This document shows, piece by piece, positions 2,386 through 8,654 of a DNA stretch of 21,672 nt. The position numbers and the translations under genes are program-made. Source of the DNA: a virus (Duplodnaviria > Heunggongvirae > Uroviricota > Caudoviricetes); the IMG/VR virus record IMGVR_UViG_637000261_000001; one strand, 5' to 3'. How positions within the stretch are numbered: the first letter of the stretch is position 1; each line of letters begins with the position of its first letter. A model generated the notes under the pieces. That model worked only from the letters and a program-made list of their open reading frames with translations, was not told where the DNA came from and searched no databases.

Positions 2386-2439
2386 GCAAGCACCTTAAAA
2401 TCACCATCATACACTAAATCAGTAAGTTGGCAGCATACC

Positions 2440-2589
2440 CAGCGAGGCAGCTCACGCCATAACGGGACTATATCGTTGGATATTACAGCGCACTAAGGAC
2501 CGCACGAATATACGGTGGGTTTACCCCCCAAACGAAATCGGAAAATCGATACTGGGAAAACTCTAACTCGGTGGCCAGTTTTTGTTGAC
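2440..2589 (+). pseudogene. 3' end of an IS3-family transposase OrfB (ISEhe3-like), continuation of the fragment at 5313..5556
   Basis: Reading frame continues ...[13 protein letters not shown]... across the shared 9 bp CAGCGAGGC; C-terminal motif ...YYSALR...ENRYW is visible in a +1 frame, implying an indel near 2467..2470. The family name is from memory and not verified. Confidence 0.45.
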
Positions 2590-2612
2590 CACTTCACCAT
2601 GGACATTTGAAA

Positions 2613-2637
2613 GAGCCCGCTTTATGCGGGTTTTTTT
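2613..2637 (+). terminator. Rho-independent terminator-like hairpin (CCCGC-TTTAT-GCGGG followed by T7)
   Basis: GC stem with 5 nt loop followed by TTTTTTT at 2631..2637, seen directly. It may belong to the IS3-family element end or be a phage tR'-like terminator. Confidence 0.5.
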
Positions 2638-2687
2638 ATACCTGAAAAACGGCACAGGACGTTAAACGTGCTGGTGGTCAGATGAGT

Positions 2688-2716
2688 TTGCAGATGTGAT
2701 GACATATGGTTATTAT
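2688..2716 (+). promoter_or_regulatory. Candidate sigma70 promoter for the tRNA cluster (TTGCAG, 17 bp spacer, TATTAT)
   Basis: -35 at 2688..2693 and -10 at 2711..2716, about 10 bp upstream of the first tRNA 5' end. Confidence 0.4.
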
Positions 2717-2725
2717 TCTGCCTCC

Positions 2726-2802
2726 GGCCCTTTAGCTCAGTTGGTCAGAGCGAGCGACTCATAATCGCCAGGTCGCTGGTTCAAGTCCAGCAAGGGCCAC
2801 CA
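2726..2802 (+). tRNA. tRNA with anticodon CAT, most similar to tRNA-Ile2 (ileX/ileZ type, lysidine-modified, reads AUA); elongator tRNA-Met not excluded
   Basis: Cloverleaf folds by eye: acceptor GGCCCTT/AAGGGCC, anticodon loop CTCATAA, T arm GCTGGTTCAAGTCCAGC, encoded CCA. Anticodon and T arms match the recalled ileX sequence. Confidence 0.75.
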
Positions 2803-2803
2803 A

Positions 2804-2880
2804 CCACCACTAGCTCATCCGGATAGAGCATCAACCTTCTAAGTTGACGGTGCGAGGTTCGAGTCCTCGGTGGTGGGCCA
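2804..2880 (+). tRNA. tRNA-Arg (anticodon TCT, reads AGA/AGG)
   Basis: Acceptor CCACCAC/GTGGTGG, D stem GCTC/GAGC, anticodon stem TCAAC/GTTGA with loop CTTCTAA, T arm CGAGG-TTCGAGT-CCTCG, encoded CCA; starts 1 nt after the previous tRNA. Confidence 0.75.
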
Positions 2881-2882
2881 GC

Positions 2883-2958
<76 letters not shown>

Positions 2959-2961
2959 TAT

Positions 2962-3036
<75 letters not shown>

Positions 3037-3042
3037 GTCAGA

Positions 3043-3088
3043 GTCTTTCAGTCTGCGATGATGGGAAATCCCGGAGTGACTGAAAGAC
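3043..3088. repeat. Perfect 11 bp inverted repeat (GTCTTTCAGTC / GACTGAAAGAC) with 24 nt spacer immediately 3' of the tRNA cluster
   Basis: Seen directly; could form a stable RNA stem-loop. Confidence 0.6.
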
Positions 3089-3095
3089 GTTTAAG

Positions 3096-3168
3096 TTATG
3101 AATGATCGCCTTTTTTTGCAAAATTGCTGTGCAGAAATACTAACCTTCGGGCGTGCGATCATTCATAA
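3096..3168. repeat. Perfect 14 bp inverted repeat (TTATGAATGATCGC / GCGATCATTCATAA) with 45 nt spacer
   Basis: Seen directly; the spacer contains a T7 run and the palindromic TTGCAA. Confidence 0.6.
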
Positions 3169-3328
3169 GCACTCTGCTTTTATTCCGATTAACTGTGGGT
3201 GGTTTGTTGGATAGAGTGCTTTCCTTACTGTATATATCGTTTCGCCCGCTTTTGCGTTTTTTTCTTTTCAAATCCCTTTCATTTCTCAGTGTAAAACTAC
3301 GCCATCCGTTATTTGCGGAGGTGAGGCT

Positions 3329-3520
3329 ATGAAATCCATGGACAAAATTTCAACGGGCATTGCCTACGGCACCTCCGCCGGCAGTGCCGGCTACTGGTTT
3401 TTGCAGTGGTTGGATCAGGTCAGTCCATCACAGTGGGCTGCGATTGGTGTGCTGGGAAGTCTGCTTCTGGGGCTTCTGACTTATCTGACGAATCTGTATT
3501 TCAAAATAAGAGAAGATTGA
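3329..3520 (+). CDS. Phage 21-type class II holin (pinholin S21-like), C-terminal end replaced by IS600 insertion
   Basis: [30 protein letters not shown]... with dual Met1/Met4 starts and two predicted TM segments; RBS GGAGGTGAGG upstream. The stop codon TGA at 3518..3520 is the first three bases of the IS600 terminal repeat. Confidence 0.65.
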
Positions 3521-4002
3521 GGTAGCCTGAGTTTAACGGACACTCCTTCCTGAAATAGAATGGCATCAGAAGGAGCTAATAATGAGCAGAAAAAACCAAC
3601 GTTACTCTAAAGAGTTCAAAGCCGAAGCTGTCAGAACGGTTCTTGAAAATCAACTTTCGATCAGTGAAGGCGCTTCCCGATTATCCCTTCCTGAAGGCAC
3701 TTTAGGACAATGGGTTACCGCCGCCAGAAAAGGGCTCGGTACTCCTGGTTCCCGCACGGTGGCTGAACTGGAATCTGAAATTCTGCAACTGCGTAAGGCG
3801 TTAAATGAAGCTCGCCTTGAGCGAGATATATTAAAAAAGCAACAGCGTATTTTGCACAGGAGTCGCTGAAAAATACGCGTTAATCGAACAATGGCGACAA
3901 CAATTTCCCATTGAAGCGATGTGTCAGGTATTTGGTGTATCCAGGAGCGGTTATTACAACTGGGTACAGCATGAACCCTCAGACAGAAAACAAAGTGATG
4001 AG
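3518..4002 (+). mobile_element. IS600 (IS3 family) 5' part, interrupted at 4002/4003 by IS629
   Basis: Left end TGAGGTAGCCTGAGTTTAACGGACACTCC at 3518; colinear with the intact copy at 16915..18178 (reverse complement). Confidence 0.9.
3582..3869 (+). pseudogene. IS600 OrfA with a 1 bp deletion in the frameshift A-run (A6 instead of A7), giving an aberrant C-terminus
   Basis: Ends ...ILKKQQRILHRSR, whereas the intact copy (17812..18114) ends ...ILKKATAYFAQESLKNTR; TTAAAAAAGC at 3831..3840 versus TTAAAAAAAGC in copy 2. Confidence 0.8.
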
Positions 4003-4044: not shown

Positions 4045-4935
4045 TCAGGCTGCCAGATCATCGTTTCCGATGGAAGCATAATAAGCTTTTTCTGCTTCTG
4101 CCGGAGGGATGTGGCCCAGCCTTTCCAGCAATCGTCGATTATTATACCAGTCCACCCACGTGAGTGTGGCCAGTTCCACTTCTGCACGGTTTTTCCAGCT
4201 CTTACGGTGTATTACCTCCGCTTTGTAAAGACCATTGATGCTCTCCGCCATCGCGTTGTCATACGAGTCGCCTGTACTTCCTGTTGATGCCAGTAATCCG
4301 GCTTCCTTAAGCCGCTGTGTGTAGGCCAGCGATACATACTGAGAACCTTTATCACTGTGATGGACCGTGCCGGACGGTCGACGGGCCCATAACGCCTGCT
4401 CCAGAGCATCCAGCACGAATGTCGTTTCCATGGACGATGAGACCCGCCACCCCACGATGTATCCGGCAAACACATCAATAATGAACGCCACATAGACGAA
4501 GCCCTGCCATGTGCTGACGTAAGTAAAATCAGCCACCCACAGCTGGTCAGGTCGTTCTGCCACGAACTGACGGTTTACGCGGTCGCCTGCGGCAACGGCT
4601 TTCCGGCTGATGGTCGTACGGACCTTTTTACCCCGGAGAACACCGGCAAGTCCCATAACCGCCATGAGACGTGCCACAGTGCATCTGGCCACTCTGATAC
4701 CTTCCCGTAACAACTGACGCCAGACTTTACGCACACCGTATACCTGATGATTCCCATCGTATACGCGCAGTATCTCTTTCTTCAGCCAGTCATCGCGCTG
4801 CGCACGGGCACTGCGTTTATCAGGATGATGTCGCTGTTGCTGACAGTGGTAATACGTTGACGGGGCAATATGTAGTTCACTGCATACCGGTCCGACCCCG
4901 TACAGCTTACGCAGCTTATCCAGCAGTGGCATCAC
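4045..4935 (-). CDS. IS629 transposase OrfB
   Basis: 296 aa ORF identical to copy 3 OrfB. Confidence 0.9.
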
Positions 4936-5258
4936 TTTTTCCAGAGGCGGTCGAACTCCGCCTTCGCAAAATAAGCGGAAGCCTGGCGAAGGATATCGTT
5001 ACTGCGGCGCAGTTCACGATTTTCACGTTCCAGCTCTTTCAGACGCTGACGTTCAGCGGTGGTGAGCCCGCCATCACCGCCTCCGGTATCCCGCTCATGC
5101 TGGCGTACCCAGACACGCAGAGTCTCCGGTGTACAGCCAATCTTTGGGGCAATGGAACAAATTGCCGCCCACTGTGAGTCATATTCGCCCTGACTTTCCA
5201 GAACCATACGAATCGCCCTCTGACGGACTTCGGGGGAAAAACGAGTATTTTTAGTCAT
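4932..5258 (-). CDS. IS629 OrfA
   Basis: 108 aa [23 protein letters not shown]...; overlaps orfB in the -1 frame. Confidence 0.9.
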
Positions 5259-5312: not shown

Positions 5313-6075
<763 letters not shown>

Positions 6076-6363
6076 CCGACGCCATTCATGGCCATATCAA
6101 TGATTTTCTGGTGCGTACCGGGCTGAGAGGCGGTGTAAGTGAACTGTAGTTGCCATGTTTTACGGCAATGAGAGCAGAGATAGCGCTGATGTCCGGCAGT
6201 GCTTTTGCCGTTACGCACCACGCCTTCAGTAGCGGAGCAGGAAGGACATCTGATGGAAATGGAAGCCACGCAAGCACCTTAAAATCACCATCATACACTA
6301 AATCAGTAAGTTGGCAGCATTACCCCATTGCTGGCATAAATTCAGTTTCGAATATTCAGTTAA

Positions 6364-7440: not shown

Positions 7441-7767
7441 ATGACTAAAAATACTCGTTTTTCCCCCGAAGTCCGTCAGAGGGCGATTCGTATGGTTCTG
7501 GAAAGTCAGGGCGAATATGACTCACAGTGGGCGGCAATTTGTTCCATTGCCCCAAAGATTGGCTGTACACCGGAGACTCTGCGTGTCTGGGTACGCCAGC
7601 ATGAGCGGGATACCGGAGGCGGTGATGGCGGGCTCACCACCGCTGAACGTCAGCGTCTGAAAGAGCTGGAACGTGAAAATCGTGAACTGCGCCGCAGTAA
7701 CGATATCCTTCGCCAGGCTTCCGCTTATTTTGCGAAGGCGGAGTTCGACCGCCTCTGGAAAAAGTGA
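7441..7767 (+). CDS. IS629 OrfA
   Basis: 108 aa, identical to copy 2 OrfA. Confidence 0.9.
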
Positions 7768-8654
7768 TGCCACTGCTGGATAAGCTGCGTAAGCTGTACG
7801 GGGTCGGACCGGTATGCAGTGAACTACATATTGCCCCGTCAACGTATTACCACTGTCAGCAACAGCGACATCATCCTGATAAACGCAGTGCCCGTGCGCA
7901 GCGCGATGACTGGCTGAAGAAAGAGATACTGCGCGTATACGATGGGAATCATCAGGTATACGGTGTGCGTAAAGTCTGGCGTCAGTTGTTACGGGAAGGT
8001 ATCAGAGTGGCCAGATGCACTGTGGCACGTCTCATGGCGGTTATGGGACTTGCCGGTGTTCTCCGGGGTAAAAAGGTCCGTACGACCATCAGCCGGAAAG
8101 CCGTTGCCGCAGGCGACCGCGTAAACCGTCAGTTCGTGGCAGAACGACCTGACCAGCTGTGGGTGGCTGATTTTACTTACGTCAGCACATGGCAGGGCTT
8201 CGTCTATGTGGCGTTCATTATTGATGTGTTTGCCGGATACATCGTGGGGTGGCGGGTCTCATCGTCCATGGAAACGACATTCGTGCTGGATGCTCTGGAG
8301 CAGGCGTTATGGGCCCGTCGACCGTCCGGCACGGTCCATCACAGTGATAAAGGTTCTCAGTATGTATCGCTGGCCTACACACAGCGGCTTAAGGAAGCCG
8401 GATTACTGGCATCAACAGGAAGTACAGGCGACTCGTATGACAACGCGATGGCGGAGAGCATCAATGGTCTTTACAAAGCGGAGGTAATACACCGTAAGAG
8501 CTGGAAAAACCGTGCAGAAGTGGAACTGGCCACACTCACGTGGGTGGACTGGTATAATAATCGACGATTGCTGGAAAGGCTGGGCCACATCCCTCCGGCA
8601 GAAGCAGAAAAAGCTTATTATGCTTCCATCGGAAACGATGATCTGGCAGCCTGA
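7764..8654 (+). CDS. IS629 transposase OrfB
   Basis: 296 aa; starts GTG 7764 / ATG 7767, overlapping the orfA stop. Confidence 0.9.

Follow-up and report, generated by a model that had tools for sequence, protein, structure and literature searches.

A gap of ~290 bp between the tRNA genes and the holin gene (positions 3037–3328) of the viral record IMGVR_UViG_637000261_000001, a Caudoviricetes sequence whose full 21,672 nucleotides are referred to here as the window, very probably encodes a conserved structured non-coding RNA of ~180 nt on the + strand. The whole element occupies 3041–3222 and is built of three hairpin modules (SL1, SL2 and SL3), as evidenced by a covariance model (R1), fold z-scores and alignment statistics. 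With a probability of roughly 0.55 for the statement as a whole, we consider the most likely role of this element to be that of a trans-acting, stable RNA of the 3' external transcribed spacer (3'ETS) type, forming the trailer of a self-contained phage tRNA operon that would comprise its own sigma-70 promoter, the tRNA array, the structured RNA and an intrinsic terminator, and that would sit as a moron between Q/tR' and the lysis cassette.

Two perfect inverted repeats, reported in the gap by an earlier note on this DNA, were recovered by a repeat finder at exactly the same coordinates, both with 100% complementary arms. The first (I2) has arms of 11 nt at 3043–3053 and 3078–3088 with a 24-nt spacer, and the second (I1) has arms of 14 nt at 3096–3109 and 3155–3168 with a 45-nt spacer. 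A third perfect repeat that was absent from the note (I6, arms of 9 nt at 3167–3175 and 3213–3221, spacer of 37 nt) abuts the second. The repeats are far beyond chance: when 3037–3328 was subjected to 2,000 dinucleotide-preserving shuffles and scanned for perfect inverted repeats with a loop of ≤60 nt, a repeat of ≥11 nt was present in seven shuffles and one of ≥14 nt in a single shuffle. The region is also AT-rich, as had been described, with a G+C content of 42% compared to 51% for the whole window.

The RNA folding check proposed in the earlier note showed the + strand of the gap to be stable beyond shuffles, at −89.1 kcal/mol (z −4.07; 0 of 200 shuffles as good), compared to a z-score of −1.9 for the − strand. 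Alignment of 41 distinct and diverse phage and prophage sequences (A2/A3) gave a consensus of three hairpins with 58 pairs. Standard pairs account for 98.0% of the predicted pair cells in these 41 sequences, compared to 41–48% when the 3' partners are slid by 1–3 columns, and changes on both sides of a pair (compensatory changes) were found at 10 pairs in 94 cells. None of 500 shuffles matched the observed covariation score or the percentage paired, with the caveat that related sequences may beat shuffles even without structure. The note had also considered that the arms might prove neither conserved nor co-varying in related prophages, which is not the case, as the hairpins covary across the 41 homologues. 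The helix cells contain 349 G-U and 16 A-C combinations. This excess of G-U over A-C points to a + strand transcript as the structured molecule, since neither the opposite strand nor a DNA cruciform could accommodate the 349 G-U cells except as mismatches.

The claimed lack of a credible open reading frame (ORF) was borne out by the homologues. The longest ORFs encode 38–59 aa, no stop-free frame is constant in strand and frame across the 41 sequences, and 1-nt indels separate the clades. Two phage records annotate a 43-aa 'hypothetical protein' on the minus strand, which was rejected because its frame is broken up in the window, HK639 and further homologues; a minus-strand stop-free frame of 59 codons, present in many HK-type sequences, was likewise discarded, being broken in HK639, the window and others and having no conserved start. 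The lack of a conserved frame and the covarying hairpins agree with the description of this region as non-coding and structured.

SL1 (3043–3088, + strand, inverted repeat I2) contains an outer stem of 11+2 bp, an asymmetric internal loop in which a near-invariant UGCGAWGAW lies opposite GGAGU, and an apical GGG-N3-4-CCC helix, and it folds alone at −22.5 kcal/mol (z −4.8). Among 32 distinct SL1 variants from wider contexts, 94% of the cells are paired compared to 35–48% after sliding, and 6 of the 17 pairs show changes on both sides, with outer stems such as GUCUUUCAGUC/GACUGAAAGAC, GCUUUCCGGUC/GACCGGAAAGC and GCCCUCCAGUC/GACUGGAGGGC. Directly 3' of SL1 lies GUUUAAG. SL2 (3096–3168, + strand, inverted repeat I1) has an outer stem of 14–15 bp, and its 3' side carries an internal loop of 17 nt. 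The inner helix, UUUUUGCA/UGCAGAAA, with UGYRRAAA as the degenerate form of its 3' strand, includes one covarying pair (U-A, C-G or U-G). This helix is capped by a near-invariant loop, AAAUUGCUG, and SL2 alone folds at −24.4 kcal/mol (z −3.2). SL2 abuts SL3 (3167–3221, + strand, inverted repeat I6), in which a covarying outer stem of 8–9 bp is followed by a G-U-rich inner helix of 10 bp with the near-invariant 3' strand GGGUGGUUUGUUGG; its own fold reaches −20.7 kcal/mol (z −4.35). In the 41-sequence alignment, five pairs changed on both sides fall jointly in helices 3 and 4 of SL2, and three more in helix 5 of SL3.

The SL1 internal loop (3052–3077, CGAUGAUGGG...CCCGGAGUGAC) loosely resembles, by eye only, the loop E/helix IV region of E. 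coli 5S rRNA. A weak match to the C/D-box snoRNA sR38 (Rfam, E 7.1) overlaps SL1, which also contains GAUGA and CUGA strings; a kink-turn or C/D-box reading was rejected, as no tandem G·A register was found beside a 3-nt bulge.

Model R1 (181 positions) detected a single copy in the window with 184.8 bits and an E-value of 2.7e-48, a score on par with those of copies in functional phages, and the RNA element of the window is intact. R1 also recovered full or partial copies in viral and metagenome contigs. As a negative control, 745 kb of unrelated DNA carrying the 14-mer GGGTGGTTTGTTGG, chance matches in unrelated phyla, was searched with R1 and nothing was found, the best hit having 14 bits (E 0.26). 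A pattern scan with a 15-mer of an SL1 variant returned mostly chance matches, together with a few true and more distant SL1 contexts that were recovered through R1.

In E. coli CFSAN029787, a prophage contains an interval 100% identical to that of the window, flanked on one side by Q plus four tRNAs and on the other by an intact cassette of holin, lysozyme and Rz genes. The element was detected in 530–536 of 5,426 complete E. coli genomes, where all copies are chromosomal, none is annotated and ~500 are 95–99% identical. Pattern scans of viral and metagenome contigs revealed a second clade at 72–82% identity as well as partial versions. In a phage collection of 50,697 records, only seven matched, namely four E. 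coli temperate phages (~97%), HK639, which is deposited twice (75%), and, in part, the Salmonella prophage Fels-1; no Stx-named phage is among these seven. The modules can be found apart from each other: a solo SL2 is present in Fels-1 (59 bits with R1) and a solo SL3 in the metagenomic phage contig L375, after a terminator, while other phage contigs contain SL1 alone, SL1+SL2, SL2+SL3 or SL3 alone, and in some an unrelated long hairpin lies 3' of SL1. This separability favours independent recognition or stability elements and speaks against one integrated tertiary fold of the riboswitch or ribozyme kind.

Four phage tRNA genes in a row (CAU, Arg UCU, Thr UGU and Gly UCC) occupy 2726–3036 on the + strand, as called by ARAGORN, Rfam tRNA (56–70 bits) and RefSeq, with the CCA end encoded. 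The CCA end of tRNA-Gly is separated from SL1 by six single-stranded nucleotides, GUCAGA (3037–3042, + strand), which read GUUAAA or GUUUAA in relatives and form a candidate cleavage site for an endonuclease of the RNase E type. In 95 of 114 unique SL1 contexts, a tRNA ends 5–8 nt upstream of the SL1 stem; these tRNAs are 91 Gly(UCC), two CAU, one Val and one with an unreadable anticodon. Some of the remaining contexts hold tRNA remnants, and HK639 retains the 3' half of tRNA-Gly. The element thus has the position of a 3'ETS-derived RNA, directly 3' of the last tRNA in a polycistronic tRNA operon. Of the options listed in the earlier note, a small RNA is among those that fit best, given the covarying hairpins and the start 5–8 nt 3' of a tRNA. 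The suggestion of tRNA 3' processing or terminator structures survives in part: a tRNA 3' trailer agrees with the junction, and the terminator half has to be dropped. Neither repeat is followed by a U-run or was called by a terminator scan, and the actual terminator of the unit is a separate hairpin downstream (3247–3256).

This intrinsic terminator, CGC-UUUU-GCG followed by U7CU4 (3247–3270, + strand), lies in the T-rich tract before the ribosome-binding site of the holin gene; the tract is thus real, as the note had it, and the terminator within it has decayed. In relatives the terminator reads (G)CCCGC-UUUU-GCGGG(C) followed by a U-run, and the change from GCGGG to GCGUU in the window leaves −3.3 kcal/mol compared to −11.5 kcal/mol in phage 689R5. 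It starts within ~40 nt after SL3 in 66 of 89 unique SL3-containing contexts. At the other end of the unit, a candidate sigma-70 promoter (2687–2716, + strand; TTTGCA-18-TATTAT or TTGCAG-17-TATTAT, 9 of 12 matches in a promoter scan) ends 9 nt 5' of the first tRNA. A TTGNNN-N16-18-TANNNT motif ending 7–11 nt before the first tRNA was found in 36 of 41 unique upstream sequences, compared to 0.9% of shuffles. The mean pairwise identity of these 41 sequences is 59%, their column consensus is TTGCa...TAT.AT, and the only strongly conserved columns are TTGCa, TAT.AT and a C/G-rich stretch abutting the tRNA. A conserved promoter at a fixed distance implies, as far as this sequence signal goes, that expression of the prophage tRNAs need not depend on Q and pR'. 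Further upstream, a strong intrinsic terminator is formed by the stem AAAGAGCCCGC/GCGGGUUUUUU and a U-run (2608–2638, + strand; −18.2 kcal/mol, z −5.3), overlapped by weak Rfam matches of leader or terminator type, and its position suggests a tR'-like terminator. The predicted order of terminator, promoter, tRNA array, structured RNA, terminator and lysis genes is a classic moron layout.

Within the array, the CAU tRNA (2726–2802) was called Met by ARAGORN, and an identical gene is annotated as tRNA-Ile in RefSeq, presumably as a lysidine-modified, ileX/ileZ-like tRNA. The second tRNA (Arg UCU, 2804–2880) is carried by one conserved scaffold, CCGCCACTAGCTCATC...GGTTCGAG...CGGTGGCGG.CCA, across relatives, in which the anticodon loop varies (L012, L107, L301, L327, L341, L456 and other contigs). 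The anticodons read in relatives are Lys UUU, Arg UCU, Phe AAA, Leu UAA, a UUA 'stop' and Cys ACA, and several loops could not be read by ARAGORN. This diversity could reflect anticodon switching or escape from anticodon nucleases.

A search of 2400–3700 against Rfam 15 at E-values up to 10 returned no AgvB (RF02702), AsxR (RF02703), STnc100/PasD (RF02076) or Esr41 (RF02676) in 3037–3328, and the whole window at the gathering threshold gave tRNAs and ALIL only. The Pas RNAs, some of which are holin-adjacent and were suspected to be identical to the element, were represented by four stretches of NC_011601 (enteropathogenic E. coli E2348/69) around their coordinates from RIL-seq (ligation and sequencing of interacting RNAs). 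PasA, PasB, PasC and PasD were all rejected, with chance-level blastn matches only and no match to R1 at E-values up to 1; PasB sits in the tail-gene region of E2348/69. By sequence and covariance comparison, the element matches no Rfam family and is not AgvB, AsxR, STnc100 or PasA-D. A full-text literature search with the exact conserved strings of the three hairpins found no paper.

The closest functional analogue would be 3'ETS-leuZ, an sRNA sponge, reportedly described by Lalaouna and colleagues in 2015, that is cut from the spacer transcribed 3' of the tRNAs in the E. coli glyW-cysT-leuZ operon. Similar to this case, the element is located directly 3' of the last tRNA of a polycistronic operon, and it would be bounded by the intrinsic terminator of the operon and released by tRNA 3' processing. 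Unlike 3'ETS-leuZ, which at ~50 nt is essentially a seed plus terminator, the element has ~180 nt and three conserved hairpins before the terminator; it is also phage-borne, shares no sequence with 3'ETS-leuZ and has no known base-pairing partner. The small stable RNAs C and D of phage T4 ('species 1 and 2'), which belong to the T4 tRNA cluster and have no known function, resemble the element in being co-located with phage tRNA genes and co-transcribed with them, as the element would be, an analogy only, as the phage lineage is unrelated. In supplements of PMC8550237, 3'ETS-leuZ is listed as 3'ESTleuZ.

STnc100/PasD (RF02076) shares with the element the niche between Q/pR' and holin, a structured nature, a length of ~200 nt and a terminator at the end, and it adjoins the element in HK639 and Fels-1, but sequence and fold differ. 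In lambdoid prophages, AgvB, AsxR, PasA and PasC are found at the moron site, with pR' on one side and the lysis genes on the other (PMC4104026; bioRxiv 10.64898/2026.05.13.724894). These RNAs are short (51–84 nt) and Hfq-dependent, and AsxR is antisense to the late operon, whereas the element is on the sense strand, is joined to a tRNA and has no similarity to them in sequence or by covariance model. The lambdoid late leader is a known hot spot for small RNAs (sRNAs) (PMC4104026; bioRxiv 10.64898/2026.05.13.724894), of which the element is, by these comparisons, an additional and previously undescribed occupant.

STnc100 copies were observed in the Q-to-holin leader in tandem with the element in Fels-1 (L402; three copies at 1273–1486, 1687–1809 and 2810–3028), HK639 (L002; 3254–3459, shortly 3' of the terminator of the element) and L375 (7149–7327); at the Rfam gathering threshold no copy is present in the window. 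A short hairpin, CACCGGGAGGCACCCGGCACC, recurs in these regions. It lies at 3374–3394 of L002, inside the STnc100 match of HK639, and just upstream of SL1 or of tRNAs in L067, L113, L149 and L383, and in L149 it replaces the T-arm of tRNA-Gly before SL1.

Q lies upstream of the element and a holin gene downstream in CFSAN029787, 689R5, HK639 and Fels-1, the location between pR'/Q and the lysis genes that characterises prophage 'moron-site' sRNAs (PMC4104026). The downstream holins belong to four different Pfam families, so the association is with a position and not with one gene.

In the favoured reading, the RNA would be co-transcribed with the tRNAs, from the dedicated promoter in lysogens and by Q-modified polymerase in lytic growth. 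A cut in the AU-rich spacer during 3' maturation of tRNA-Gly would free an RNA of ~215–235 nt, which may persist because it is shielded by SL1 at its 5' terminus and by the terminator hairpin at its 3' end. A protein or RNA partner would then recognise the near-invariant loops, with action in trans as for a 3'ETS sRNA. Several observations weigh against this proposal. Release, stability and trans action of the RNA are all inferences. No partner was found in the window, where reverse complements of the three conserved segments occur at chance level only, and the linker before the terminator, the place of a classical Hfq-type seed, lacks conservation from one clade to the other. The two main clades, the window type and the HK639 type, account for much of the covariation, so the cell counts overstate the number of independent events. 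In HK639 the tRNAs are not preceded by a promoter-like site, so a dedicated promoter is not universal and expression in some phages must depend on read-through from pR'. Moreover, as the modules assort independently, the element may be a string of separate functional hairpins and not one RNA with one job.

The main rival, which we regard as clearly less probable, is that the element acts in cis as the leader of the late lysis transcript. Here tRNA excision would leave a 5'-monophosphate, and SL1 would be a 5'-terminal stabilising hairpin of the ompA type that shields the holin/endolysin mRNA from 5'-end-dependent RNase E, with SL2 and SL3 adding processing or stability determinants. The fixed and short gap of 5–8 nt between CCA and SL1 is what a 5'-terminal protective hairpin needs, a spacing requirement reportedly established by Emory, Bouvet and Belasco in 1992. 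SL1 is also the module tied most tightly to the tRNA end and is found without SL2 and SL3, and the element always precedes the lysis cassette whatever the holin family. A plain protective hairpin, however, needs no near-invariant internal-loop sequence, the stretch from the element to the holin gene is usually interrupted by one to three intrinsic terminators, and in Fels-1 and HK639 this distance comprises several hundred nucleotides and further sRNA genes. The conserved dedicated promoter, in addition, suggests expression outside the late programme.

A more tentative proposal, to which we give slightly less weight than to the cis leader, is that SL1, SL2 and SL3 are autonomous recognition hairpins of modular phage 'tRNA-trailer RNAs', a class not described before. 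At each of the near-invariant loops (UGCGAWGAW/GGAGU, AAAUUGCUG and GGGUGGUUUGUUGG) there might then dock a specific host or phage factor, for which RNase E/the degradosome, Hfq or ProQ, and a tRNA-maturation or tRNA-targeting defence enzyme are conceivable candidates. If so, tRNA excision would be coupled to the fate of the late transcript or to neutralisation of a host factor.

That the hairpins are mere structures of tRNA 3' processing or termination, devoid of a function of their own, appears improbable. Their place immediately 3' of the last tRNA and the AU-rich spacer, which resembles an RNase E site, would suit this explanation, yet ~180 nt with conserved loops and three covarying hairpins far exceed what processing needs, SL2 and SL3 also occur without a preceding tRNA in Fels-1 and L375, and termination is assigned to the separate downstream hairpin, as the repeats themselves have no U-run and were not called as terminators.

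Far less probable again is that the element acts like put, as a processive antiterminator RNA through which polymerase would ignore subsequent terminators. The stacked hairpins do precede one to three terminators located ahead of the lysis genes, and HK639, which carries the element, reportedly uses antiterminator RNAs (King and colleagues, 2011). The put RNA of HK022 is a unit of ~70 nt with two stems just after the early promoters, where it replaces the N protein (PMC9378689). It shares with the element the nature of phage hairpin RNA in an operon leader upstream of terminators, but the element consists of three separable modules and not of a 70-nt two-stem unit (PMC9378689), and it is located in the late leader, 3' of tRNAs and not just downstream of an early promoter. 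The four annotated carriers in which the upstream gene was examined encode Q, and no HK022 record is among the phage-collection matches. Lysogens would also be killed if transcription from a constitutive tRNA promoter ran on into the lysis genes.

The earlier note had further regarded the gap as an empty slot at the position of the stx operon and possibly the footprint of a lost cargo module. The positional analogy is fair, since the insertion site for morons and stx in lambdoid prophages lies downstream of pR' (PMC4104026), and the decay of the surrounding prophage would agree with a remnant. The slot is nevertheless not empty, being occupied by a tRNA-plus-RNA unit whose sequence is kept under structural constraint in hundreds of genomes. 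A non-functional remnant of lost cargo is therefore very hard to reconcile with 95–99% identity in ~500 E. coli genomes, 72–82% identity in a second clade and compensatory changes, and none of the seven matches among the 50,697 phage records is Stx-named. Least probable of all is a small protein on either strand or a DNA-level site (a cruciform or protein-binding palindrome), for the ORFs of 38–59 aa, the annotated 43-aa minus-strand ORF and the stop-free minus-strand frame of many HK-type sequences that could speak for a protein include no frame kept family-wide, each broken in the window, HK639 or several homologues and shifted by 1-nt indels between the clades, and the many G-U cells would be mismatches in DNA.

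The holin gene that follows the element in the window (3329–3520, + strand) encodes a Class II holin of the P21 S type (Pfam PF04971, E 1.8e-33), is preceded by the ribosome-binding site GGAGG at ~3317–3321 and is cut after 63 codons by the insertion of an insertion sequence (IS), such that homology to the intact prophage of CFSAN029787 spans 2626–3516 only. The surrounding prophage is decayed, and copies of IS1 and of the IS3 family flank the region. Three ALIL frameshift pseudoknots mark IS3-family copies at 1–72, 4861–4977 (− strand) and 7722–7838, and two IS1 copies with InsA/InsB ORFs were found at ~1688–2455 and ~5572–6340. This IS density is typical of Shigella or enteroinvasive E. coli (EIEC).

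Late-leader regulatory RNAs of lambdoid phages, such as AgvB, AsxR, PasA-D and STnc100, rewire host physiology and virulence. To these the element adds an unannotated RNA family with unusually good comparative support, present in many temperate phages and in about a tenth of complete E. coli genomes. As indicated by the sequence signals, a phage tRNA array can form a complete promoter-to-terminator unit in which the trailer is a structured RNA. Should the RNA act in trans, it would be a new prophage regulator in extraintestinal pathogenic and avian pathogenic E. coli (ExPEC/APEC), in EIEC/Shigella-like and in commensal lineages; if it acts in cis, it would show how phages can cut tRNAs out of a late transcript and still keep the downstream lysis mRNA stable. 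With the covariance model, the element could be annotated in hundreds of genomes that at present list nothing, or a spurious 'hypothetical protein', at this interval.

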